Notes: generated from the sequence alone by a model not told the origin. DNA of 64,000 nt from Bacillota bacterium (GCA_049323895.1 JBMOKT010000008.1:12985-76984); one strand, 5' to 3'; shown: positions 3,251-50,675, counted from the first letter of the stretch. A program made the numbers and translations.

Positions 3251-3310
3251 TATTGAAATGTACTAAACTATGTGCTAATATGAATTATGTAATTATTAAT
3301 TTCATAAATT

Positions 3311-3397
3311 ACTAGGGGAGCCGGTAGGGCCGGCTGAGAGTTGACCATCTAAGTCTAGACCCTTGACCTGATCTGGGTAATGCCAGCGTAGGGAAGT
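3311..3397 (+). promoter_or_regulatory. TPP (THI-box) riboswitch aptamer
   Basis: actaGGGGagcc...ggCTGAGAg...ACCCTTgaCCTGATCTGGgTAATGCCAGCGTAGGGAAg matches the conserved THI-box core. It sits directly upstream of thiW. Confidence 0.9.
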
Positions 3398-3406
3398 ATG
3401 TTTTTA

Positions 3407-3441
3407 CACCTTTCCCCTGCCTTGGGAAAGGTGTTATTTTA
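3407..3441 (+). terminator. Riboswitch expression-platform terminator
   Basis: cacctttccc / gggaaaggtg 10-bp stem with a 7-nt loop, followed by ttatttta. It lies between the aptamer and the thiW SD. Confidence 0.8.
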
Positions 3442-20177: not shown

Positions 20178-20215
20178 AGCAACCTCGTAAAGTTTAAAAA
20201 GGTTGCTTTTATTTT
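20174..20215. terminator. Bidirectional hairpin terminator (3' of repeat C1 and of the GGDEF gene)
   Basis: aaaaaGCAACCTcgtaaagtttaaaaAGGTTGCttttatttt. Confidence 0.7.
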
Positions 20216-21855
20216 GCCGTTTGGAGCAATTCTTTTGTATGGGTAATCATACCGCAAAACCCTTTTAACAAAACAGGATCATAATGGATACCGGAAAACT
20301 TTAATAGTTCCTCAATGGCTTGTTCTTTGGACATGGCTTCCTTATAAGGACGGTTGGTAGTGATAGCATCATAGCTGTCAATAATCCTTAAAATCCTTGC
20401 ACCTAAGGGTATCTTCTCCCCTTTAAGCCCAAAAGGATAGCCTGTTCCGTCAAAGTTTTCATGATGGTACAAAACAATATCCAGGGTCCCCTTTAAAGAC
20501 TTGAGGGGTCTGATAATATCGGCGCCCCATTGGGGATGCTGCTTGAATTGCTGCCATTCAGTATTGTTAAGTTTTTTAGGCTTGTTTAAAACTTCCCGGG
20601 ATATTTCTATTTTTCCAATATCGTGGAGTAAGGAGCCGTATAGTAAATCCTTGCCCAACTGGTCGTCCAAACCATACACCTCTGCAAACCTTTTTGATAA
20701 TTCCATAACCCTTTCCGAATGGCCATAGGTATACCTGTCCTTGGCATTAATTACCATACTGAGGGTCCTGATAGAATTAAACAGTTCCTTTTCTTCCTCT
20801 TTTAAAGAAAGGCTTAAATCATCGAAAACTGAATAATAGGTTTCAACTTTATTTTTACTGACAAACTTAGCCTTATATAAGGCTTCATCAGCCTTTTGGA
20901 TTAGTTTTTCTTTATTATCTGCCATGCTGGGAAATTCTGCAATACCTATAGAAATGGTTAATTTTCCTTTAGGCAGAACCTCCATTCCAGGAAAAACTGC
21001 CTGTTCAACCTGGCTGCGGATTTCTTCACCTAAGACCTTTGCCGGCTTTATCCCCACATTGGGCAGAATAATTGCAAACTCCTCACCACCGTAACGAGCA
21101 CAATACCCTAAAGTCCCCGCCATTTTTTTCAATATTTCTGCCACTTTTATTAAAACCTGGTCGCCTTTTTGATGCCCTAATGAGTCATTATAGACCTTAA
21201 AATAATCCAAATCTAAAAGCATAAGGTTTAGCTTTGAGTTGTTTTTCTTAGCTTGAATCAGTTCTTCATCAAGTATAGCTTGGAAGCTTCTGTGATTTAG
21301 TATATCGGTTAAGCTGTCGTGGGTGGCTAAACGTTCCAGTTCTGTTCTAATTTTCGCTTCAGTTTCGGTCATATTTCCTAAAAGCCAGGCAAGAAGAAAC
21401 AATATCCCACTTAGCATTATGTCTGCATCAAATGAAGCCGAGTCACTAATAATGGTAACATAAAATGATGATATGGAAGTTAAAATCGCCGCAGCGAATG
21501 ATAGCATTGTACCATATCTTAAAGCAGTGACCAATACAGGCATCAATAATACAATCTTAAATAAATTATCTTTTTCCGTCATAAATAAATAATTGGTGAG
21601 AAAAATAAAAAAAACAATGATTGCAAAATCTAAAATAACATTGCTTAACTCTGATTTGGTTTTTAATAAATTTAAAAACGGCAAAAAGGCTAAAACAAAA
21701 ATAAATAATAAGACATTGCCACTTTTGTCAATAATATTTTCATAGGAAAAATTAGCTGTTCTTAGCATTAAAATACCAAGTATTAAGAAAAATAATACTT
21801 GTGATACTAATATATAATTGTTCACGTAATTATTTCTTTTATTTTTTAGCTTCAA
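20209..21855 (-). CDS. Membrane-bound GGDEF plus HD-GYP dual-domain c-di-GMP signalling protein
   Basis: 548 aa. About 5-6 N-terminal TM segments, RYGGEEFAIILP (GGEEF), then LLHDIGK and HHENFDGTGYP (HD-GYP). Confidence 0.85.
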   Translation of the reverse strand: MKLKNKRNNYVNNYILVSQVLFFLILGILMLRTANFSYENIIDKSGNVLLFIFVLAFLPFLNLLKTKSELSNVILDFAIIVFFIFLTNYLFMTEKDNLFKIVLLMPVLVTALRYGTMLSFAAAILTSISSFYVTIISDSASFDADIMLSGILFLLAWLLGNMTETEAKIRTELERLATHDSLTDILNHRSFQAILDEELIQAKKNNSKLNLMLLDLDYFKVYNDSLGHQKGDQVLIKVAEILKKMAGTLGYCARYGGEEFAIILPNVGIKPAKVLGEEIRSQVEQAVFPGMEVLPKGKLTISIGIAEFPSMADNKEKLIQKADEALYKAKFVSKNKVETYYSVFDDLSLSLKEEEKELFNSIRTLSMVINAKDRYTYGHSERVMELSKRFAEVYGLDDQLGKDLLYGSLLHDIGKIEISREVLNKPKKLNNTEWQQFKQHPQWGADIIRPLKSLKGTLDIVLYHHENFDGTGYPFGLKGEKIPLGARILRIIDSYDAITTNRPYKEAMSKEQAIEELLKFSGIHYDPVLLKGFCGMITHTKELLQTAK

Positions 21856-21870
21856 CTTAAATTACCTCAC

Positions 21871-21903
21871 AATTAAAGATTGAGGTGGGCTTGTCCACCT
21901 CAA
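21871..21903 (-). terminator. Hairpin after agrD (possible partial terminator before the GGDEF gene)
   Basis: Minus sense: TTGAGGTGGacaagcCCACCTCAA followed by tctttaatt (only a moderate T-run). Confidence 0.45.
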
Positions 21904-21907
21904 TTCT

Positions 21908-22030
21908 TTATTTTTGTAAGCTCTTTGGTGTCTTAGGTTGATAGTTCCACCAAGTACAAGCAAAAGAGGAACTGATTGTTGCAAGCAACATTAATAGAGT
22001 AGAAATACCTACAAATAATGATTTTTTCAT
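21908..22030 (-). CDS. agrD: AgrD-like autoinducing-peptide precursor (40 aa): MKKSLFVGISTLLMLLATISSSFACTWWNYQPKTPKSLQK
   Basis: Not in the ORF track (<60 aa); translated by me. Its ATG overlaps the agrB stop (ATGA). It has an amphipathic leader, a single Cys followed by TWWN, then a Pro-containing charged tail (YQPKTPKSL) like clostridial AgrD. Confidence 0.75.
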   Translation of the reverse strand: MKKSLFVGISTLLMLLATISSSFACTWWNYQPKTPKSLQK

Positions 22031-22611
22031 TCTTGTACACCTCCTTTATTATTTAAGATGGGTATAAGAGTCAATGATTGGTAAAATATACCCAAAACAA
22101 TACTTAATTTCAAAACATTTGAATTTAAAACAAAATAAATAATAGTTGAAACTATCATAATAGATAATGAAGTTATTTTTAATTTTCTTTTAAAAGAAAG
22201 AGAAATTATTGGTTTTGCAGGGCTGTCTTGGGGAGCAAAACAAAAAACCAGAACAAAACTTAAAATAAGGAATAAAAAACTATAATTTACAAAAACAGTG
22301 AATAATAAATATTTATTTATAAATATACCAATTAATGTATATACTGCTGTTCCAAAAAATAAACATTTGAGAGGGGAGTCAAAATGAAAACCTCCGGATA
22401 CCTTTCTCAACAAACCGCCGAATATTGCAGCAACTGAAGCCGGAATTAGAGCTTCAAAAACAAAGGAAACAGCTACAATTAACAAAAATCCTCCCAGTTG
22501 CACAATAATATTTTCTATTGAATAAGCAATGATTTCTTTTTTTTCTTCATCATAGTTAAGTTCTTTTGTAATGAAATCAGTTAAAAATATACTCATTCTA
22601 GAATAAGTCAT
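22027..22611 (-). CDS. agrB: AgrB, accessory gene regulator B (AIP-processing membrane peptidase)
   Basis: 194 aa, polytopic. LLRKVSGGFHFDSPLKCLFFG carries the His-x6-Cys pair, spaced as in S. aureus AgrB H77/C84. Confidence 0.85.
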   Translation of the reverse strand: MTYSRMSIFLTDFITKELNYDEEKKEIIAYSIENIIVQLGGFLLIVAVSFVFEALIPASVAAIFGGLLRKVSGGFHFDSPLKCLFFGTAVYTLIGIFINKYLLFTVFVNYSFLFLILSFVLVFCFAPQDSPAKPIISLSFKRKLKITSLSIMIVSTIIYFVLNSNVLKLSIVLGIFYQSLTLIPILNNKGGVQE

Positions 22612-22615
22612 CTTT

Positions 22616-23059
22616 TCACCTTTTTCTAAAATAGTTTATAGAATATGGAATTAGAAATAATAGTATAACATATGGAAGAGAAATAATAATACGCATTCTA
22701 ATATCATAAGATAGAACTTCAGAAGAAACGTTTAGTATTTTAATCATTGTACTTGTAGATATGGTTTCTACTATAATCAAAATTAATATTGTACTAATAC
22801 TTACGACAATCGCCTTATTAATGCTAACTTCACCATACTTACTTACAATAAAAAATAATAAACCTATCGCAATGATTGTATGAACTCCAAAGGTAACAGG
22901 CATAAGTCTAATTAAATAGGATGATAGTGATAAAATGACACCAAAAGTAATTATTACTTTTATATTTAACTTTGATTTACTTAAAACTAAAGCTAGATAA
23001 ACAAGAAATATATTTTCAGGCACACCTAGAAACAACCATACTATAAAAGGCATCTTCAT
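22616..23059 (-). CDS. Polytopic membrane protein (147 aa), first gene of the agr unit
   Basis: 4-5 TM segments. Its stop is 4 nt from the agrB start. It resembles a stand-alone membrane sensor module; no kinase domain. Confidence 0.55.
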   Translation of the reverse strand: MKMPFIVWLFLGVPENIFLVYLALVLSKSKLNIKVIITFGVILSLSSYLIRLMPVTFGVHTIIAIGLLFFIVSKYGEVSINKAIVVSISTILILIIVETISTSTMIKILNVSSEVLSYDIRMRIIISLPYVILLFLIPYSINYFRKR

Positions 23060-23150
23060 TATGTAATTCCTCCTAGATAAATATCAATTTCCACAAAATA
23101 TTGGATTTTCCTACCAAAAACACAAAAAATTTTACTACATATTTTTATAT

Positions 23151-23430: not shown

Positions 23431-23464
23431 TTAAAAAAACCGGGTTTACAATACCCGGTTTTTA
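23431..23464 (-). terminator. Intrinsic terminator of the hdr-flx operon
   Basis: Minus sense: AACCGGGTattgtaaACCCGGTT followed by ttttttt. Confidence 0.8.
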
Positions 23465-23486: not shown

Positions 23487-24326
23487 TTAGTACTCAGGGG
23501 GCAGGTCTTTTAGCTGCTCCATGGTAAATACCGGTCCATCCAGACAAACATAACATGAACCAATATTGCAGCGCCCACATTTTCCAATACCGCATTTCAT
23601 TCTCATTTCTAAAGTGGTAATAATATCAGTATCAGCAAAATTCATCTTCTTTAGACCTTGCAAAGTAAACTTAATCATGATGGGAGGTCCGCACAAGATG
23701 GTAACCTGGGGCTTGGGAGCAAGCTCCTCAACGTATGAAGGTACAAAACCCACATGCCCATCCCAGCCTTCTTCTTCCCTGTCGATTGTTACACAAACAT
23801 CCATATTGGGAACCTTGGGCCAATTTTCAAATAAGTCTTCTTTGAAACACAGGTCTCCTTTGCTTCTGGCACCATAAACAACTGTTAACTTGCCAAAGTC
23901 ATCCCGGTTTTTTACACAGTGCATAATCAGACTGCGTACAGGTGCCAGCCCTATACCGCCACCGATAAAGAGAATATCCTTCCCTTTACAGTAGTCTATA
24001 GGAAAACCATTGCCGTATGGTCCGCGAATACCCACTTCCTGCCCGACTTCTATTTCATGCAAGGAATTAGTCAATTGACCTACAGCCCTAATTGCCATTT
24101 CTATATGATTTTCACCCTTATTAGTGATAGAAAACATGCCTTCGCCTATAGCAGGCATTGATAGCATCCCCAACTGACCAGGCGCAGGGTCAAAAGGTAT
24201 TTTGCCATCTATGGTGCTGATGTGAAAGGTTTTTACATCATGGGTTTCCTGGACAATATCGATAATTTTCCCTCTTATAGGTACTAGAGGATTAATTCTT
24301 TTCACCTCTTCAGGAGTAATTGCCAA
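23487..24326 (-). CDS. FlxA-like FAD/NAD(P)-binding oxidoreductase with a C-terminal [2Fe-2S] motif (AsrB/HydG-like)
   Basis: 279 aa. TTG start with GGAGGG 6 nt upstream. GGGIGLAP nucleotide-binding motif. C-terminal CGIGKCGRCNIGSCYVC. Confidence 0.7.
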   Translation of the reverse strand: MAITPEEVKRINPLVPIRGKIIDIVQETHDVKTFHISTIDGKIPFDPAPGQLGMLSMPAIGEGMFSITNKGENHIEMAIRAVGQLTNSLHEIEVGQEVGIRGPYGNGFPIDYCKGKDILFIGGGIGLAPVRSLIMHCVKNRDDFGKLTVVYGARSKGDLCFKEDLFENWPKVPNMDVCVTIDREEEGWDGHVGFVPSYVEELAPKPQVTILCGPPIMIKFTLQGLKKMNFADTDIITTLEMRMKCGIGKCGRCNIGSCYVCLDGPVFTMEQLKDLPPEY

Positions 24327-24345
24327 TCTTCTCCCTCCTTTTCAT

Positions 24346-24476
24346 TAGTGGCTAATGTTAGTGGCTAGTTGTTAGTGGCTAGTGGCTAGTAAATAGTTAC
24401 TGGTGACTGGTGACTGGTGACTGGTTACTGGTTACTAGACAACGGTCGATGGCTAATAGTCGATAGCCAATAGCTA
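24346..24476. repeat. Family-A array block: (TAGTGGC)n, then (ACTGGTG/ACTGGTT)n, then cgatggctaatagtcgatagccaatagc
   Basis: ttagtggctaatgttagtggctagttgttagtggctagtggctagtaaatagttactggtgactggtgactggtgactggttactggttactag..., read directly. It starts 6 nt upstream of the flxA-like SD. Confidence 0.9.
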
Positions 24477-24563
24477 TATTTTTAAAAGCTGATTTACCAC
24501 GCTCCTGTTATTAGCTGGTAATAACAAATCCGTTGAATCTCAGTCCGCAAAGCAAAATCTAAT

Positions 24564-24603
24564 CTTTTTCTGTAGCCACTGTAGACACTGTAGCTACTGT
24601 AGG
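24564..24603. repeat. Family-A nonamer array CTTTTTCTGTAGcca CTGTAGaca CTGTAGcta CTGTAG
   Basis: Direct reading; it ends 11 nt from the stop of the flxB-like gene. Confidence 0.9.
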
Positions 24604-24614
24604 TTCTATTAGGT

Positions 24615-25604
24615 CTACGCTTCCTGTATCTTCTTAATAACAGACGTTATATCAAGGTTCACGGGGCATTTGGTTACACAACGTCCGCATCCTGTGCATA
24701 AAAGCATATTATACCTCTCTGGGAAGTAACGAAGCTTGTGCAAGAAACGGTTCCTGACCCGTTCCTTCTTGCCCGGTCTGGGCTGGTGTCCGCCGGCCAT
24801 CATTGTATATTCGTCAAACATACAGCAGTCCCAGCAGCGTATTTTGACTCCATCTTCCCCCCGCACTTCATTGGCAATGTCAAAACAGTGGCAGGTTGGA
24901 CATACATAGGCACAGGCACTGCAGTTCAGACATTTGCGGGAAATATCATCCCAGATGGGGTGGTCAAACATATCTTTCAGCTTCTCAGGAACACCTTCTA
25001 CATCTGCAGCCAGGGTGAACTCTCCCACCGCCGGAATAGCTGCATCTTCCTCTTGCAGAAGTCCGGAAACTTTATTTAGTATCTCTGTTCCCTTGTCAGA
25101 AAGAGGCTCAAACCCTATTTTCTCGCCTAAATCATAAGCTTGGATATCCGCACCTTGTCCTTTTTGAGGGTCTATACCCATAGATGAACAAAAGCAGGAA
25201 GCCATTGGTTTTACACAGCTTAAAGCGATAAAAATACTGCGATCCCTTTTTTCCTGATAATAGGGGTCTACAAAACCTTTAGTTAGAAAAACTTGGTCTA
25301 GGCAATCTATACTCTTCATATCACAGGAACGTACTCCAAATAGAACCTGAGTTTCTTTTTCACCGGGTATTTCTTCAATTTCCAGTGACTGATCCTTAGT
25401 CTTAAACTTATACATTTTCTCCGTTTGAGGGAAGAAAATATCCTTGGGAGGCATAACTACATTTTCCTCCAGGGCCAGTTCAACATCCTGCTGGTAAGGA
25501 GCAAACCTGGTGACTCCTTGGAATTTAGCAGGGACTAAGACCTTATATTCCTTGGCCAGTGATTCTAAAAACTGGGGTAAATTAGCCTTGGCTATAGTTT
25601 TCAT
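24615..25604 (-). CDS. FlxB-like iron-sulfur protein (AsrA/HydB-like 4Fe-4S dicluster protein)
   Basis: 329 aa. CLNCSACAYVCPTCHC and CTGCGRCVTKCP ferredoxin-type motifs. Confidence 0.65.
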   Translation of the reverse strand: MKTIAKANLPQFLESLAKEYKVLVPAKFQGVTRFAPYQQDVELALEENVVMPPKDIFFPQTEKMYKFKTKDQSLEIEEIPGEKETQVLFGVRSCDMKSIDCLDQVFLTKGFVDPYYQEKRDRSIFIALSCVKPMASCFCSSMGIDPQKGQGADIQAYDLGEKIGFEPLSDKGTEILNKVSGLLQEEDAAIPAVGEFTLAADVEGVPEKLKDMFDHPIWDDISRKCLNCSACAYVCPTCHCFDIANEVRGEDGVKIRCWDCCMFDEYTMMAGGHQPRPGKKERVRNRFLHKLRYFPERYNMLLCTGCGRCVTKCPVNLDITSVIKKIQEA

Positions 25605-25616
25605 CCTAACACCTCC

Positions 25617-26516
25617 CTACATAAATTCTTCTGGGTCATCTTTATCAAAGTGACCTAAAGGAAGTTTACCTTGCGGATCAATACCGGCATCATACTCACC
25701 AAACAAATCATTTATATCCTTAATAAGCTTTTTATTTAACAGCATAATGGGTATGTCCATGGGACAAGCCCTTTCACACTCACCACATTCAATACATCTG
25801 CCGGCAACATGCATAGCCCGGGTCAGAGCAAAGAACTGGTTTTCTGACGAGTTGTTAGCCTTGCCTATCCAGCCCACTCTTGTCTGGTCAAAAATACACT
25901 CCCGGCAGCTGCAGGCAGGACATACATTGCGGCAGGCATAACAACGCAAGCACCTTTCATACTGTTTGGTCCAAAATTCATATTTCTCATCAGGTGTCAT
26001 TTCCTCCAAGGCTTTAACATCTGAATAGTCTACTGCCTCTTTGGTAGCTGCTACCTCTTTCAGGGCTTGGGCATCTCCAATAAAATAATCATAAACTACA
26101 GGATTGGGATATTTGCATTCCACACATTTTTGTGCTGCAGGAATATCGCCCCCTGCACCAAGTTCCTTGGCTTTATCCTGGTCTTTTAAACCATGACACG
26201 GTATGCCGATAAGGATTACCTTGTCCCGCTCAATCTGCTTATCCTGTAACAATCTATTAAAGGCACGGGCGTCACAGCCCTTAACAAAAACTGCTGCTTT
26301 CCCCTCATGGGTGGTATACTCTGTTAAATACTTGCTTAAATTATTGTGGCAATAGTCATCCCAGACAAGCCTTGCCGCGTCTTCGGGTTTATCAATGAAG
26401 GCTGGCGGGGACAAATACCAAAAAGTACCCTTTTCCCAACCAATAACAACCTCAGCTTCACCTTTTTCCAAAATTTCCCGGGCAATGTCTTGCATTTTTT
26501 TGGTTATCTCATTCAT
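25617..26516 (-). CDS. FlxC-like iron-sulfur protein
   Basis: 299 aa. CLRCYACRNVCPACSCRECIF and CIECGECERACP motifs. Overlaps mvhD by 4 nt. Confidence 0.6.
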   Translation of the reverse strand: MNEITKKMQDIAREILEKGEAEVVIGWEKGTFWYLSPPAFIDKPEDAARLVWDDYCHNNLSKYLTEYTTHEGKAAVFVKGCDARAFNRLLQDKQIERDKVILIGIPCHGLKDQDKAKELGAGGDIPAAQKCVECKYPNPVVYDYFIGDAQALKEVAATKEAVDYSDVKALEEMTPDEKYEFWTKQYERCLRCYACRNVCPACSCRECIFDQTRVGWIGKANNSSENQFFALTRAMHVAGRCIECGECERACPMDIPIMLLNKKLIKDINDLFGEYDAGIDPQGKLPLGHFDKDDPEEFM

Positions 26517-26950
26517 TGGGCATCCCTCAACTTCCTGTTAGGCCCCATAGCCCTAATTTCATCAGTAATTTGAGTAACAACCTGCTGGAATTTTGGACCC
26601 TCGGAGCCGGAAATCCATCTGGCTTGGAAACGTTCCGGGTCAACACCTACATATTGCAATAAACGCTGCATCAACATATAACGTCTGCGAGTGAAATAGT
26701 TGCCTGATACATAGTGACAATCCCCTGGATGGCAGCCGGCAACCAGCACACCATCTACACCCCTCTGAAACGCCCTGATTACAAACTGGGGATTTACCCG
26801 TCCCGAGCATGGCACCCGGAGAATTCTTATATTAGGCGGGTACTGCAGACGGCTTAAGCCAGCCAGGTCAGCACCGGCATAGGTACACCAGTTACAGGCA
26901 AAGACCAGGATTTTAGGTTCCCAGTTTTGTTGGTTCTCCTTTACAGACAC
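26513..26950 (-). CDS. mvhD: MvhD/FlxD-type hydrogenase delta-subunit-like iron-sulfur protein
   Basis: 145 aa. ILVFACNWCTYAGADLAG...RVPCSGRV is typical of MvhD. Overlaps the hdrA 3' end. Confidence 0.8.
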   Translation of the reverse strand: MSVKENQQNWEPKILVFACNWCTYAGADLAGLSRLQYPPNIRILRVPCSGRVNPQFVIRAFQRGVDGVLVAGCHPGDCHYVSGNYFTRRRYMLMQRLLQYVGVDPERFQARWISGSEGPKFQQVVTQITDEIRAMGPNRKLRDAQ

Positions 26951-28923
26951 AGTGCATCCACCTCCGCCAAAATTTGTTCGTTAGTAAAGTGTTTCAGGTT
27001 CAATGCTGCGGAACGACAGGCAACAGTACAAGCTCCGCAGCCTTGGCATAAGCCGCTGTTTACTGCAGCAACACTTCGGGAAACTGTTTTGCCGTGTGCC
27101 CTCTCTTGAATGGTCTTCATATCAATTGCCTTATAGGGACATACAGGCACACACATACCACATCCTGCACAAATAGCCTCATTGACTTCAGAGATAATAG
27201 GTTCTGTAGCCATTTGATCCTTGGACAGAAGTCCGCAAGCCTTAACTGCAGCTGCACTGGCCTGGGCAACCGAATCAGGTATATCCTTGGGTCCCTGGCA
27301 AGCCCCAGCCAGAAAAACACCAGCAGTATGGGTTTCTACAGGAGCCAGCTTGGGATGGGCCTCTGTATAGAAGTGGTTCTGGTCATAGGAGAAACCTACC
27401 ATTTGCGCTAATTTTGCCGCATCGGTCTTAGCAATCATAGCCGTAGCCAGAACTACCATATCTGCTTCTACTTCTACGGGTCTGCCCAAAAGGGTGTCCT
27501 CACCGCGAACCATCAGCTTGCCACCTTTTTCATATATCTTGGAAACCCTGCCTCTGATATACTTGGCACCATATTGGTCAGTTGTTCGGGTGTAGAACTC
27601 ATCATAACCCTTACCAGGAGTGCGGACATCCATGTAAAACACGTAGACATTAGAGTCCTTAATCTTTTCTCTGACCAAAGTGGCATGTTTTGCCGTATAC
27701 ATACAGCAGGTTTTGGAACAATAAGCCTTGCCTTTTGCCTCATCCCGCGAGCCAACACACTTAATGAACACCACATTCTTCGGTATTTGCCCGTCGGAAG
27801 GTCTTTTGATTTTTCCCATGGTAGGACCGGAAGCATTAATTAACCTTTCGAAGTGCAGTCCGGTAATAACATCCTTATACTTGCCATAGCCGTACTCACC
27901 ATAGACTTTTTCGTCGAAGAGGTCAAAGCCGGTAGCTACGACGATAGCACCATATCTTTCCTTGACAAGTTCATCCTCTTGGGTAAAATCAACGGCATTG
28001 GTAGGACATACCTTTTGACATACTCCGCATTTGCCAGTTTTAAAGTAACGGCAGTTTGCCCTGTCAATGACAGGCTTATTGGGAATAGCCTGAGGGAAAG
28101 GAGTATAGATGGCTTTACGGTCCATCATTTCCATTTCAAATTCACTGGGTACTTTGGACGGGCATTTCTGATAACAGGTGCCGCATCCCGTACAAGCCTT
28201 CAGGTCAACTGAACGGGCTTTCTTTCTAATTGTTATATCAAAGTTGCCTACATAGCCTTCTACCTTTTCAATTTCCGAAAAAGTTATCAGGTTTACATTA
28301 GGATGATTGGCGACCTCAACCATTTTGGGTGTTAAAATACAAGCTGAACAGTCCAAGGTTGGAAAGGTTTTATCAATCTGGGCCATACGCCCGCCAATGG
28401 ATGGTTCTTTTTCTACCACATCTACAATATGACCGGCATTGGCAATATCTAAGGCAGCCTGGATACCGGCAATACCTCCACCAATTACCAAGGCACGCTT
28501 AGTGATGGGAATAGTAGACCTCTGCAGTGATTCATTTTTCAGAACCTTAGCCACAGCCATCCTTACTAATTCAGTAGATTTAAAGGTAGCACGTTCCTTA
28601 TCATCGGGGTGCACCCAAGAACAATGCTCCCGTATATTGGCCATTTCCAATAAATAAGGATTTAAGCCCCCGCTTTCAATACACCTGCGGAAAGTAGGCT
28701 CATGCATCCGGGGTGAACAGGATGCTACAACAATCCTATCCAGCTTATGGTCCTTAATGGCTTTTTTGATTAGTTCCTGTCCAGGCTCAGCACACATATA
28801 CTTGTAGTCAGTACTGTATGCAACCCCTGGAAAGCTTTTGGCATTTTCTGCAACCTTTTCACAATCAACACTTGCGGCGATATTGGTACCGCAGTGACAA
28901 ATAAATACACCTACACGCTTCAT
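26941..28923 (-). CDS. hdrA: Heterodisulfide reductase subunit A-like flavoprotein
   Basis: 660 aa. VIGGGIAGIQAALD FAD motif, several CxxCxxCxxxCP ferredoxin motifs, N-terminal VFICHCG. Confidence 0.85.
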   Translation of the reverse strand: MKRVGVFICHCGTNIAASVDCEKVAENAKSFPGVAYSTDYKYMCAEPGQELIKKAIKDHKLDRIVVASCSPRMHEPTFRRCIESGGLNPYLLEMANIREHCSWVHPDDKERATFKSTELVRMAVAKVLKNESLQRSTIPITKRALVIGGGIAGIQAALDIANAGHIVDVVEKEPSIGGRMAQIDKTFPTLDCSACILTPKMVEVANHPNVNLITFSEIEKVEGYVGNFDITIRKKARSVDLKACTGCGTCYQKCPSKVPSEFEMEMMDRKAIYTPFPQAIPNKPVIDRANCRYFKTGKCGVCQKVCPTNAVDFTQEDELVKERYGAIVVATGFDLFDEKVYGEYGYGKYKDVITGLHFERLINASGPTMGKIKRPSDGQIPKNVVFIKCVGSRDEAKGKAYCSKTCCMYTAKHATLVREKIKDSNVYVFYMDVRTPGKGYDEFYTRTTDQYGAKYIRGRVSKIYEKGGKLMVRGEDTLLGRPVEVEADMVVLATAMIAKTDAAKLAQMVGFSYDQNHFYTEAHPKLAPVETHTAGVFLAGACQGPKDIPDSVAQASAAAVKACGLLSKDQMATEPIISEVNEAICAGCGMCVPVCPYKAIDMKTIQERAHGKTVSRSVAAVNSGLCQGCGACTVACRSAALNLKHFTNEQILAEVDALCL

Positions 28924-29807
28924 GCAGTATCCCTCCTGCCTTCAGCCTCAACCAGCTTTTTGGCTAAACTCACAGCATCCACAAAATGCTTATTTAAACC
29001 TAATTCTCCCGGATTCATACCAAGGGCTAAACCCATCAATTCAGTAAAATAAAATACAGGCAGCTTGTAATCTTTACCAAACTTAGCCTCTACCTGGGTT
29101 TGACGCATGTCAAGGTTATTCATGCATAAGGGGCAAGCTGTGGCAATGCAGTCTGCTCCGGCATCCTTAGCTGCTGTTAAAATTTTCTCAATCATGGAGA
29201 AACCAACCTCGGATTTGGTAGTAGCATGGGCTGCTCCACAGCACTCGGTCTTAAAGGCCCAGTCTACAGGGGTCCCCCCCATGGCTTTAACTAAATTATC
29301 CATGCTTTGAGGATCTTCCGCGTCATCAAAACCCAATTTGGGCGGGCGTACCAAAAGGCATCCGTAATAACTTGCAACCTTTAAATCCTTTAGAGGATTA
29401 TTAACCAGAGTGTTTACAGCTTCCAGACCTAAGTCATTGACAAACACATCTAATAAGGCCCTGGCTTTGGCTTTTCCGGTATATTCCCGTTCAATTACTT
29501 CATTAATGGTATTTCTCATTTCCATTGACTGGCTGGCTTCCACCTCTGTCGCTTTGCATCTGGCATAACATGCAGCACAAGGAATTGCTACATCCAACCC
29601 TTTTGCCTCGGCAATAGCCAGATTCCTGGCGGGCAAGGCCAATGCCAGCAGATGGTCTGTTAAATGGGCACTGGAGGCGCCGCAGCAGTTCCATTCGGGA
29701 ATTTCCCAAAGCTCAATACCTAAAGCAGCAGCAACTTTTTTGGTGGATATATCATATTCAATTCCGGTGGAACTCAAGGAACATCCTGGGTAATATGCAT
29801 ATTTCAT
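28920..29807 (-). CDS. hdrB: Heterodisulfide reductase subunit B-like (two CCG domains)
   Basis: 295 aa. WNCCGAS and TECCGAAH CCG motifs. Confidence 0.85.
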   Translation of the reverse strand: MKYAYYPGCSLSSTGIEYDISTKKVAAALGIELWEIPEWNCCGASSAHLTDHLLALALPARNLAIAEAKGLDVAIPCAACYARCKATEVEASQSMEMRNTINEVIEREYTGKAKARALLDVFVNDLGLEAVNTLVNNPLKDLKVASYYGCLLVRPPKLGFDDAEDPQSMDNLVKAMGGTPVDWAFKTECCGAAHATTKSEVGFSMIEKILTAAKDAGADCIATACPLCMNNLDMRQTQVEAKFGKDYKLPVFYFTELMGLALGMNPGELGLNKHFVDAVSLAKKLVEAEGRRDTA

Positions 29808-30373
29808 ACCTTTCCACCCCGCTTCCGGACATTAGCAAATATCTTCTTTACTTCCCCGTTATCTTTGATTGTATGGGGCAGTGGAGATAATTTTCCTTTT
29901 AACAGCATACTGGGACCAAAGTGGGCATCTTTAAGAGGCTGCATGCTGAAAATATTAAAGCCCAGTATTAAACCCATTTCGTGTACACGTCCATGATTTT
30001 CTACAGATTTTAAGAAGAGATTATGGAAGATGTCCATTTTCTTTTCAGTGATATAGCCTTTTTTCTTAGCTATAATCCTTAAAGTCTCCATTACCCGGGC
30101 TATGTCAACTTCTCTGGGACACCTGGTTGAACAGGTATCGCAGCTAGCACAGAGCCAGATAGTATGAGAATGCAAAGCATCATCCATAAGCCCCAGCTGT
30201 ACTAACCGCATTATTTCCCGGGGAGTTTTATCCATCGCAAAAGCAACAGGACACCCGGCTGAACATTTACCACACTGATAGCATTTTGAAGCCCTAACGC
30301 CGCTTTCTTGTGTCACCTCGGCTAAAACCTCTTGCCCTTTGGCTAAAGCAGCAGTTAGTTCAATCCTTTCCAT
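29804..30373 (-). CDS. hdrC: Heterodisulfide reductase subunit C-like (4Fe-4S dicluster)
   Basis: 189 aa. CYQCGKCSAGCP and CASCDTCSTRCP motifs. GGAGG upstream. Confidence 0.85.
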   Translation of the reverse strand: MERIELTAALAKGQEVLAEVTQESGVRASKCYQCGKCSAGCPVAFAMDKTPREIMRLVQLGLMDDALHSHTIWLCASCDTCSTRCPREVDIARVMETLRIIAKKKGYITEKKMDIFHNLFLKSVENHGRVHEMGLILGFNIFSMQPLKDAHFGPSMLLKGKLSPLPHTIKDNGEVKKIFANVRKRGGKV

Positions 30374-48449: not shown

Positions 48450-50675
48450 TTAAGATACCATGGGATTTTTATATTTATCATTTATCGGGAATACCAATGT
48501 AAAAGTAGTACCATGTTCTTTACTGCTTTCTATTTCAATTCGCCCACTATGACTTTGAATTATTTGATAGGAGATACTCATCCCTAATCCAGTACCTTTC
48601 TCCTTAGTAGTATAGAAAGGTGTGGCTAACTTCATCTTTTCTTCTTCAGACATAATTTTTCCATTGTTATAAATTGAGAGATAGCATTCGGAGGTAATAT
48701 TATCAAATCCAGTTTGAATAATAAGCTTGGGTTTAGGGGTTTCCTCCATAGCATCAATAGCATTCTTTATAATATTCAAAATCACCTGTTTAATCTGGTT
48801 TTCATCAAGCATTATTTTTTCATTAGTATTAGCTAAATTATATTCTACCTTTATTCCCTTTTTAAAGGTATTGGTTTCAATCAAAAGTCTCATTGAGTCA
48901 ATAATATCAACAAGTGATGACTCTTCCAATTTGGGAGGTCTAGGTTTAGCAAAATTTAAGAAATCACTAACAATTTTGTCTAAGCCCTTACTTTCTCTTT
49001 CTATTGCTTGGGCATATTCTTTTATTGCTTCATCATTGGATTTAAAATTAATTAGCTGGCTATAACCTAGAATTGCTGTCAAAGGGTTTTTTACCTCATG
49101 GACAATTCCTGCTGCCATTTGTCCCAATAAGGCTAGCTTTTCTTGCTGTTGTATTATTTCTTGGTCCTGCTTCATTTTTGTTATATCAGATGCTATTGCA
49201 ATTGCTCCAATAATATCACTATCAATATCAAGTATGGGACCTGTATGTAATAGAAACTCTTTAACATGACCCGTAGGAGTAATAATTCTCGCTTGGATAT
49301 TTTCCTTTACTATTTGCCCGGATAATACTTTGTTAGCAAGTCCCCTTTCACTAATTTTAATTAAATCAGCAATTTCATCTATATTCTTACCAACAATATC
49401 CTTAGAATTAAGTTCTGAAGCTTCTTCGAATTCTTTATTGCAAATAATAACCTTTTTTGATTTATCGAAGACTAATACGGCATTATTAACAGCATCTAAT
49501 ATTGTCCGTGTTTGTAGTTGCATATTCTCTATTGCCTGAATTTTCTTAGCTTCATCAAATAGATATAAAAATTTACCACTATTAAGTTTGTATGCATCTA
49601 TAACCAATTTAATCTTTTCTCCAGATGCTTTTGTAAAAATCCGCAGTTGATTCTGTAATATCTGAGGATGTCCATCTTTAAAGCATCTAATCAAAGGAGT
49701 TAAAGAGCCTTCACTTGCAAAGATTTTTTTTGTAATTTCTGTATCTTTTAAACCAGCAAAATCCTTAAAATTATAACCTAATAGTTCTTCTGCTTTTCTA
49801 TTGGCAAAGGTTAATTTATAATCACTATCATATGTTGTAATGGCTAATGGCATTTCATTTAAAATTTCATTTGTATATTTAATGTTTTCCTCCAACTTTT
49901 TGTAGGGAAAGGTTATAACACTAACGATAATTCCTCGAAATAGAAAATAGTAATAAGTAACTCTTAATAAATGCGCTAATATCTGGAAGTAGGCTGAATA
50001 TACATTATTTAAGATTAAGCATATATTTGAAATAGCAGCTACTATAAATGCTAAATATATCCAATAATATATTATTAGTTCTTTAGTAAGTATCTTATCT
50101 CTTAACCTGTATAAGCCTATTAAGAATAATCCTATTAAAAACAATTCGAATAGATTGTAGGCACTACCTATTCCATTTTCATTTAATAAAATATTTTGGG
50201 AAATACGCAATACTTGCAGCGAATAAAAAACACATACTATAATAAGTGAAGAACAGAACAAGCCAAACCATTTGTTCAATCGAAATTTTAATGTTCGCGT
50301 GGATATTATGAACAAAACCATTCCTTCGACTAACCTTAGAACTATGGAATATTCTAACGAAAAATCTTCAAAACCCACAAAGCCATAAAATATGTGGAAT
50401 ATTTCTAAAATTGCAACAATAAAGAAGCCAAATCCTAGTAATTTAACTGCTGGTTTATTATTTTCATAGGTATACCATACAATTAGAAATATTATAAAGG
50501 ATACTAGAAAGGATAAGAATTCAAAAATCTCGTAAAGAAATATTGAATAATTGTGCCAAAAAGGAGAATGCAAAATTAATTTAGCAACAATTATATTTAT
50601 AATTAGAGCTATAACTGCATAAAGATTGATTAACTTTAATTCTTTTTTAATGCCTATTTGCTCCAAATGGCACAC
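48450..50675 (-). CDS. Orphan sensor histidine kinase: large polytopic N-domain, PAS repeats, HisKA and HATPase
   Basis: 741 aa. About 8 TM segments in the first 260 aa. HEVKNPLTAI H-box, and GTGLGMSISYQIIQSHSGRIE G-box. No response regulator adjacent. Confidence 0.85.
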   Translation of the reverse strand: MCHLEQIGIKKELKLINLYAVIALIINIIVAKLILHSPFWHNYSIFLYEIFEFLSFLVSFIIFLIVWYTYENNKPAVKLLGFGFFIVAILEIFHIFYGFVGFEDFSLEYSIVLRLVEGMVLFIISTRTLKFRLNKWFGLFCSSLIIVCVFYSLQVLRISQNILLNENGIGSAYNLFELFLIGLFLIGLYRLRDKILTKELIIYYWIYLAFIVAAISNICLILNNVYSAYFQILAHLLRVTYYYFLFRGIIVSVITFPYKKLEENIKYTNEILNEMPLAITTYDSDYKLTFANRKAEELLGYNFKDFAGLKDTEITKKIFASEGSLTPLIRCFKDGHPQILQNQLRIFTKASGEKIKLVIDAYKLNSGKFLYLFDEAKKIQAIENMQLQTRTILDAVNNAVLVFDKSKKVIICNKEFEEASELNSKDIVGKNIDEIADLIKISERGLANKVLSGQIVKENIQARIITPTGHVKEFLLHTGPILDIDSDIIGAIAIASDITKMKQDQEIIQQQEKLALLGQMAAGIVHEVKNPLTAILGYSQLINFKSNDEAIKEYAQAIERESKGLDKIVSDFLNFAKPRPPKLEESSLVDIIDSMRLLIETNTFKKGIKVEYNLANTNEKIMLDENQIKQVILNIIKNAIDAMEETPKPKLIIQTGFDNITSECYLSIYNNGKIMSEEEKMKLATPFYTTKEKGTGLGMSISYQIIQSHSGRIEIESSKEHGTTFTLVFPINDKYKNPMVS

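Follow-up and report, generated by a model that had tools for sequence, protein, structure and literature searches.

A conserved agrBD cassette ending in a membrane GGDEF/HD-GYP gene: a putative peptide quorum-sensing unit with c-di-GMP output in Bacillota

The DNA analysed here is a stretch of 64,000 nucleotides from a Bacillota bacterium (GCA_049323895.1, JBMOKT010000008.1:12985-76984), referred to below as the window; the closest named relatives of its source are Peptococcaceae. On its minus strand the window carries a cassette of four genes, which encode a 147-residue membrane protein (here called S147), the signal-production proteins AgrB and AgrD, and a 548-residue membrane protein with GGDEF and HD-GYP domains, a putative bifunctional synthase and hydrolase of cyclic di-GMP (c-di-GMP). 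As described below, the adjacency of agrBD and the enzyme gene is real and strongly conserved. The features of the cassette, all on the minus strand, are the following.

23059..22616, minus: S147 gene, 147 amino acids; open reading frame as in a preliminary description of this DNA
22611..22027, minus: agrB, 194 amino acids; membrane cysteine peptidase that processes AgrD (PF04647 match)
22030..21908, minus: agrD, 40 amino acids; precursor of a cyclic autoinducing peptide (TIGR04223 match)
21855..20209, minus: gene for the 548-residue protein, with six transmembrane (TM) helices, GGDEF and HD-GYP; putative bifunctional c-di-GMP synthase/hydrolase and candidate receptor/output
21346..21855, minus: six-helix membrane domain of that protein ("TM548"), residues 1-170, from an AlphaFold2 model
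20851..21327, minus: its GGDEF domain, residues 177-335 (PF00990, E=1.4e-42)
20272..20766, minus: its HD-GYP domain, residues 364-528 (PF13487, HD_5, E=2.7e-39)

The cassette and its conservation

The four reading frames form a unit on one strand, in agreement with the preliminary description. agrB and agrD overlap by 4 nucleotides (nt), and exactly 52 nt separate agrD from the gene of the 548-residue protein, which begins with TTG and has the ribosome-binding site GTGAGG. The preliminary description had also stated that neither a histidine kinase nor a LytTR regulator follows agrD. This holds, as the genes downstream of the enzyme gene are those of a YgjP-like peptidase and then an SDH-type protease. 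When every reading frame of the window was searched with phmmer (E≤1), using one probe for AgrA and one for receiver domains, neither a LytTR nor a receiver domain was found; likewise, neither the locus nor the window encodes AgrC, a kinase of the HPK10/GHKL type with HATPase_c_5. The only kinase in the window is a 741-residue orphan protein (MASE3-PAS-HisKA-HATPase) that is encoded 26 kb away, at 48450-50675 on the minus strand.

The locus belongs to the AgrB/AgrD signal-production family. The 194-residue protein is AgrB (PF04647, E=9e-35), and the positions of the catalytic His/Cys pair are occupied by H76 and C83, both invariant in the alignment. The 40-residue protein is AgrD (TIGR04223, E=3.6e-11) and reads MKKSLFVGISTLLMLLATISSSFA, then CTWWN, then YQPKTPKSLQK; its predicted product is a thiolactone ring of five residues, CTWWN. 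The flanks of this ring, S[VS]FA-C and YQPKTPKSLQK (FAC-x4-YQPKTPKSLQK), are constant in about 28 loci while the ring itself is hypervariable, the four residues after the Cys changing in almost every lineage (CTWWN, CTWWS, CAFWG, CGWWT, CNWGF, CWYST, STVIW). The last of these comes from L043 (3807-3938; loci are numbered with the prefix L), an enzyme-type locus in which the ring position is occupied by Ser and not Cys (ASA-STVIW-YQP), which implies a lactone rather than a thiolactone ring.

Conservation of the arrangement was tested in both directions. In the forward test, one genome per species was scanned with an AgrB alignment, which gave 17 loci. The 6TM-GGDEF-HD-GYP gene follows agrD in two of the 17, from Peptococcaceae BICA1-8 and Bacillota ZNE14_Bin80 (AgrB 30% identical), and a single distant locus combines a GHKL kinase and a regulator of the YcbB type. 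Inspection of the contexts of S147 homologues added the four-gene cassette of Clostridiaceae BRH_c20a, and that of a metagenome lineage with wholly different flanks, in which GerA lies upstream and an HTH_20 gene downstream. In the reverse test, a metagenome scan with a DNA pattern of the membrane domain only returned four loci from three independent lineages, all with AgrB-AgrD directly upstream. Furthermore, seven enzymes of 40-60% identity were picked with their context ignored: four from named genomes (Ca. Formimonas warabiya, CP017634; Gracilibacter BRH_c7a; Ca. Dichloromethanomonas; Thermanaerosceptrum fracticalcis) and three from metagenome lineages. All seven lie in the order S147 (one or two copies), AgrB, AgrD, enzyme. 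In total, of the loci picked solely for the likeness of their enzyme or membrane domain, 10 of 10 have agrBD directly upstream. The number of distinct loci with the complete order S147-AgrB-AgrD-(6TM-GGDEF-HD-GYP) is 16, and their surroundings are of at least five kinds (Hdr/Flx, GerA, rplM-rpsI/amidase, acetolactate synthase small subunit and others). The co-occurrence that the preliminary description had left to be surveyed in relatives is thus kept far beyond the window, and its refuting condition, that no relative keeps the adjacency, decisively fails. A functional linkage of the four genes is, in our judgement, very probable. That the 16 loci represent a single, recently transferred element is unlikely because the identities range from 40 to 73%.

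The enzyme, its membrane domain and the kinases of sister loci

The preliminary description had credited the 548-residue protein with a membrane N-terminus and with intact GGEEF and HD-GYP motifs, and both attributes stand. The GGDEF domain contains RYGGEEF (the A-site GGEEF), DLDYFK and N223/D232, the canonical guanine-specifying pair; each of these motifs is kept in 104-108 of 108 full-length homologues. The 548-residue protein has no RxxD I-site. In the HD-GYP domain, HDIGK and HHENFDGTGYP are present, and the residues H, D, HHE, G and Y are kept in all 108 homologues and P in 107. Full-length homologues number at least 120 at the level of clusters, with 40-73% identity and lengths of about 540-565 residues. 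Across the 108 full-length sequences, the median identity to the window protein is 60% for GGDEF and 63% for HD-GYP, 54% for TM6 with the linker, and 27% for helices 1-5. The divergence of helices 1-5, taken with the hypervariable AgrD ring, is the pattern that would be expected of a receptor and its ligand. In T. fracticalcis (L038, CP045798.1, 2170-5455) the enzyme gene is still in place and is interrupted by an insertion sequence with a DDE transposase on the opposite strand, which leaves an N-terminal fragment of 112 residues and a remainder of 484.

The N-terminal domain of the enzyme was modelled as six TM helices joined by short loops (AlphaFold2, predicted local distance difference test (pLDDT) 85.7). 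Its conserved residues are D143, D145, W157, G160 and E166, and the model places D143/D145 at the outer end of TM6. Foldseek searches of the PDB with the models of this domain and of S147 gave no significant match, the best E-values being 1.6 and 0.65; a loose six-helix resemblance to membrane adenylyl cyclases (TM-score 0.51) was not significant. By hhalign, no relation between S147 and the six-helix domain was found. The preliminary description had suggested a comparison of both membrane parts with the sensor domain of AgrC; against the N-terminal domain of the AgrC-type kinase of Clostridium estertheticum, the hhalign probability of the six-helix domain was 0.1% and that of S147 3.6%, showing no detectable likeness, in a comparison that is weak in having a single comparator and no AgrC membrane structure among the Foldseek matches. 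Among known membrane modules, DUF4118 (PF13493), the KdpD-type membrane domain of sensor kinases, also stands at the N-terminus of signalling proteins. Of 29 homologues of the enzyme, 10 match it over helices 3-6 (best E=9.8e-5) and 6 match MASE1. All of these are below the Pfam cut-off, however. The window protein itself lacks a DUF4118 match, its sole hit in this check being MASE1 at E=0.062, and the domain here differs in having six helices with the conserved D143/D145/W157/G160/E166.

The six-helix domain is not confined to the enzyme. In loci L030/31, from marine sediment, a second copy of S147 and the gene of a 693-residue kinase come after the enzyme gene. This kinase begins with the six-helix module too (phmmer 5e-40), which is joined there to two PAS domains, HisKA and HATPase (L030, 6738-9341, including its own S147). 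In Ca. Formimonas (L033, 304-1899), a 531-residue kinase with the six-helix module is transcribed divergently from the cassette and matches the L030 kinase at 4e-45. The third case is a plasmid of Clostridium beijerinckii (L041, NZ_CP107023.1, 566-3945), on which AgrB, S147 and AgrD are followed by a frameshifted kinase with a related membrane domain, split into at least four reading frames with PAS, HisKA and HATPase fragments; the S147 homologue at 1319-1807 is absent from the plasmid's gene table. Within one genome, where an unusual likeness of the two could point to a shared ligand, the six-helix domains of enzyme and kinase are 51% identical in L030 but only 34% in L033. In every case except one weak match, the domain is found at agr loci. 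Read from these sequences, the six-helix domain appears to be a swappable input module that is fused to kinases beside agr loci in three lineages. That it feeds two types of output, both at agr loci, is the strongest argument for its being an input domain for the locus's own signal.

A second type of kinase was found in sister loci. In Desulfosporosinus and Desulfitobacterium (L008-L022), an orphan kinase of about 600 residues takes the enzyme's place after agrD in at least 12 loci; it has two TM helices, an outer domain of about 130 residues, one PAS domain, HisKA and HATPase. In Gracilibacter (L034, 333-2177) and Dichloromethanomonas (L035, 372-2180), a kinase of this kind precedes the S147 genes and occurs together with the enzyme.

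S147 and the transcription signals

S147 was modelled as five TM helices (AlphaFold2, pLDDT 96.4). An HMMER scan of 1.84 billion representatives delineates a family of 718 clusters, nearly all of them stand-alone proteins of about 150 residues, and the members that carry a source name are all labelled "hypothetical". There is no Pfam or NCBIfam match for S147, and none of 67 members meaningfully matches a Pfam family. R51 is invariant, and P14, E15, P54, G58, H60 and P129 reach a conservation of at least 90%; the polar residues E15, R51 and H60 are predicted to lie at the outer membrane face under the topology that we assume for the model. A tblastn search of plasmids and phages with S147 gave nothing, and the copy on the C. 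beijerinckii plasmid was later found with a profile hidden Markov model (HMM). With the profile HMM, one or two tandem copies of S147 were located upstream of agrB in 17 of 17 loci, immediately so in 16 and at about 860 nt in L024. Further exceptions to the position just upstream are L041, where S147 lies between agrB and agrD, and L029, where it is out of view at the end of the sequence. S147 therefore accompanies its AgrB clade in nearly every locus, whatever sensor follows.

In the preliminary description S147 was taken for a detached polytopic sensor module. The hhalign values of 0.1-3.6% show no detectable relation to the AgrC-like sensor or to the membrane domain of the enzyme, and what can be said is that S147 could be a conserved accessory membrane subunit with a role either in maturation or export of the peptide or as a co-receptor. 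The former role is favoured by its tight coupling to agrB and by the CPBP protease that fills the same slot in a canonical locus; the latter is favoured by the kinase-adjacent copies, including one pair without agrBD. The canonical locus is that of C. estertheticum pCF008-A (L040, 4586-5188), with the order agrA-agrC-agrD-agrB; there the gene of a CPBP-family intramembrane protease (MroQ type) overlaps agrB at its end, and S147 is absent. The pair without agrBD is in L042 (1187-3376), where a member of the S147 family directly precedes a kinase (PAS-HisKA-HATPase) whose membrane domain is weakly related; there is no agrB or agrD nearby, on a contig that ends 1.2 kb upstream. A division of S147 paralogues into AgrB-proximal and sensor-proximal clades was also considered and rejected, as the duplications are lineage-specific in the phylogeny.

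The transcription signals around the cassette, again on the minus strand, are listed here.

21879..21904, minus: terminator-like hairpin after the agrD stop, from pairing and compensatory changes across relatives
23086..23112, minus: proximal sigma-H-type promoter-like motif, a pattern match that ends 27 nt before the S147 start codon
23150..23176, minus: distal sigma-H-type promoter-like motif, AGGAAAA-N11-TGTAGAAAT, a pattern match
23433..23460, minus: terminator-like hairpin CCGGG-N9-CCCGG followed by T7, seen directly in the sequence

The hairpin between agrD and the enzyme gene had been described as weak. In fact it is a terminator-like stem of 10 base pairs (-19.7 kcal/mol) that is conserved across relatives and lies directly 3' of the agrD stop in every locus examined. 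In an alignment of 10 sequences, 88% of cells pair, versus 36-62% when the partners are slid, and five of the 10 pairs have changed on both sides, i.e. in a compensatory manner. The hairpin is followed by a T-rich tail and then by the ribosome-binding site of the enzyme gene, and it was flagged as terminator-like by a consensus scan. The gap between agrD and the enzyme gene measures about 46-62 nt in most loci and about 100 nt in L029. Since this hairpin-filled gap has no room for a separate promoter, the enzyme would depend for its expression on read-through or on a transcription start within agrBD. A core of GAGGTGG/CCACCTC is kept in the hairpins of the window, L001, L007, L017, L025, L034 and L035. 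This core resembles a Shine-Dalgarno sequence paired to an anti-Shine-Dalgarno-like sequence, and its conservation exceeds the needs of a plain terminator.

Upstream of S147, two matches to the pattern AGGAWWW-N11-12-RNNGAAWWW were found, a pattern of the sigma-H type. The window as a whole has five matches versus 0.72 expected. Among 31 loci, 13 have an exact match in the 200 nt that precede their first S147 gene, versus about 0.3 expected by chance. In B. subtilis, the phr pheromone genes are also sigma-H driven. The proximal motif is likely the promoter of the operon, and the four genes are probably transcribed as one operon from a sigma-H-like promoter upstream of S147.

The upstream boundary of the cassette is the hairpin at 23433..23460, which closes an operon of Flx/Hdr type; the same AAACCGGGC...GCCCGGTTTTTT hairpin is at the equivalent place in L001, L025 and L017. 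The operon itself (23487-30373, minus strand) is a heterodisulfide-reductase/Flx-like cluster directly upstream, with CCG, an HdrA-like protein of 660 residues, FlpD/MvhD, several ferredoxin-type proteins and an NAD-binding oxidoreductase. The synteny of such a cluster and the cassette is shared by three other lineages, L001, L025 and L017, the last judged from intergenic sequence. Elsewhere in the window, a thiamine pyrophosphate riboswitch (RF00059, 74 bits, 3304-3411, plus strand) is the sole Rfam match; the 64 kb contain neither a tRNA gene nor a c-di-GMP riboswitch.

Interpretation and relation to known systems

Taken together, the gene content and its conservation suggest that the cassette is most likely a self-contained peptide quorum-sensing unit with c-di-GMP output. 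Following from the families, AgrB would cyclise and cleave AgrD into the five-residue thiolactone CTWWN. The leader of AgrD ends in a signal-peptidase-like site, SSFA/C, and so the mature peptide may be tail-less. A leaky terminator hairpin after agrD would keep the peptide's mRNA abundant and let some transcripts continue into the enzyme gene. At the membrane, the six-helix domain of the enzyme, alone or with S147, would then perceive the extracellular peptide, and this input would shift the enzyme between synthesis and degradation of c-di-GMP. In this manner, cell density could set the level of the second messenger directly, without a kinase and a response regulator. As an explanation of the whole, direct reception of the peptide by the enzyme is the best we have, and we give it about an even chance of being right. 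The more specific proposition is held a shade more tentatively: that cyclic autoinducing peptides have in the six-helix domain a receptor module not recognised before, which here drives a bifunctional GGDEF/HD-GYP enzyme directly, and that S147 is a new and indispensable part of a large agr subtype outside the canonical kind, which would have spread through Peptococcaceae, Desulfitobacteriia and some Clostridium.

Several observations weigh against direct reception. Binding of the peptide by the membrane domain of the enzyme or by S147 is something we infer from gene linkage, and so is everything else that goes beyond that linkage. The six-helix domain has no detectable likeness to the AgrC-type sensor or to any solved structure. 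Transmembrane segments commonly diverge fast, and not in receptors alone. The hairpin after agrD looks like a terminator, so that read-through into the enzyme gene is assumed. Sister loci have the 2TM-PAS kinase in place of the enzyme or beside it, and a kinase may be the primary receptor; given that some of these loci have the enzyme as well, a kinase receptor may be encoded elsewhere in the genome of the source. Finally, the distant pair of S147 and kinase in L042 occurs without agrBD.

The alternative that survives best is that the enzyme is a co-expressed output. The peptide would be sensed by an unlinked histidine kinase, for example a homologue of the 2TM-PAS kinase or of the one with the six-helix domain; c-di-GMP would change upon induction of the operon, and the membrane domain would serve as an anchor or sense some other cue. 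The sister loci of Desulfosporosinus and Desulfitobacterium, at least 12 of them with the PAS kinase in the enzyme's position, fit this well, as does the co-occurrence of the two in L034 and L035. Known orphan agrBD systems also use unlinked receptors, namely VirS (PMC4963840, PMC7492741) and RgaS/RgaR (PMC10602386). However, most enzyme-type cassettes (among them those of the window, L017, L025, L027, L036-L038 and L043) contain no kinase, and the six-helix domain is common to the enzyme and the agr-locus kinases, which points to a role in input. A pure output enzyme, moreover, has no need of a conserved polytopic domain that is found almost only beside agrD. We consider this alternative, the main one, unlikely.

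A somewhat less probable alternative assigns the binding of the peptide to S147, as a small co-receptor from which the signal would be relayed, inside the membrane, to the transducer of the locus, be it a six-helix enzyme, a six-helix kinase or a 2TM-PAS kinase. Its presence in all 17 genome loci regardless of the type of sensor is in keeping with this, and so are the extra copy directly before the six-helix kinase in L030/31, the S147 and kinase pair without agrBD in L042, the tendency of two-sensor loci (L030, L033-L035) to have two copies, and the polar E15, R51 and H60 at what is predicted to be the outer face. On the other hand, S147 is separated from agrB by 4-nt gaps or overlaps and stands between agrB and agrD in C. 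beijerinckii, so that a partner in biosynthesis or export fits equally well. The CPBP protease beside agrB in canonical loci suggests a processing role for the accessory slot, the lineage-specific duplications leave no ancient split between an "AgrB partner" and a "sensor partner", and the numbers of S147 copies and sensors are mismatched in L001, L007, L036 and Desulfosporosinus. We regard such a role for S147 as rather improbable.

That an ordinary membrane c-di-GMP enzyme lies beside an orphan agrBD by chance, in bacteria in which GGDEF/HD-GYP genes are numerous, is hardly credible in view of the 10 of 10 loci of the reverse test across different flanks, the conserved, short and hairpin-filled gap, and the restriction of the membrane domain to agr loci in all cases but one weak match.

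If direct reception of the peptide by the enzyme is correct, its significance lies in the route of the signal. Peptide quorum sensing in Gram-positive bacteria is known to proceed either through membrane histidine kinases or, after import of the peptide, through cytoplasmic RRNPP regulators. Pheromone genes in a fixed, conserved link with a c-di-GMP synthase/hydrolase would open up a third one, leading directly from density to the messenger of biofilm and motility, and the cassette would be the first case of a Gram-positive peptide pheromone being read as c-di-GMP with neither a kinase nor an RRNPP-type regulator involved. Two new membrane families at non-canonical agr loci, S147 and the six-helix input domain, would be defined as well, and the cassette would provide candidate receptors for "orphan" agrBD in anaerobes of bioremediation and of subsurface sulfur, metal and organohalide cycling. 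The author of the preliminary description knew of no account of this wiring, and we found none either: full-text searches aimed at it, in a literature that leaves subscription journals mostly outside its coverage, returned no paper describing the agrBD-GGDEF/HD-GYP cassette, the S147 family or the six-helix domain. In Galperin's survey of HD-GYP architectures, which deals with other membrane sensor domains (MASE9-12), a keyword search gave no six-helix domain of this type and no link to peptide signalling.

With the canonical agrBDCA system of the S. aureus type, the cassette shares the catalytic His/Cys of AgrB, an AgrD Cys/Ser five residues before the cleavage point, a charged C-terminal tail of AgrD and a hypervariable ring. 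It differs in having no AgrC (GHKL/HPK10) and no AgrA (LytTR) in the locus and an extra S147 upstream; in addition, the gene after agrD encodes the 6TM-GGDEF-HD-GYP protein, whose output is presumed to be c-di-GMP and not phosphorylation. Canonical loci were also found here, in Enterococcus gilvus pCR1A and C. estertheticum pCF008-A. In C. perfringens (CPE1563-CPE1562-agrB-agrD), the product of an orphan agrBD is sensed by VirS/VirR, and small hypothetical reading frames upstream are co-transcribed with agrBD and required for complementation (PMC2706048, PMC4963840, PMC7492741); in C. difficile, agr1 is an orphan agrBD with RgaS/RgaR (PMC10602386). These resemble the cassette in that agrBD has no adjacent two-component system, whereas here the place immediately downstream is regularly taken by a signalling protein, as part of a conserved arrangement.

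Direct or nearly direct action of a diffusible signal on a c-di-GMP enzyme is familiar from the Rpf systems of Burkholderia and Xanthomonas, in which RpfR is a BDSF-binding PAS-GGDEF-EAL protein and RpfC acts with RpfG (HD-GYP). Their signals are fatty acids rather than a peptide, and the sensor is a cytoplasmic PAS domain or a receiver phosphorylated by a kinase. The ScrABC system of Vibrio parahaemolyticus combines in one operon a signal maker, an accessory receptor and a membrane-bound, dual-function c-di-GMP enzyme that is switched by the autoinducer (PMC10269520). Its proteins are not homologous to those described here, its signal is a small molecule carried on a periplasmic binding protein, its enzyme is of the GGDEF-EAL type and its host is Gram-negative. 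Nevertheless, ScrABC is the closest system in logic to the cassette as known here from its gene architecture, for its quorum sensing is tied to c-di-GMP, as that of the cassette would be.

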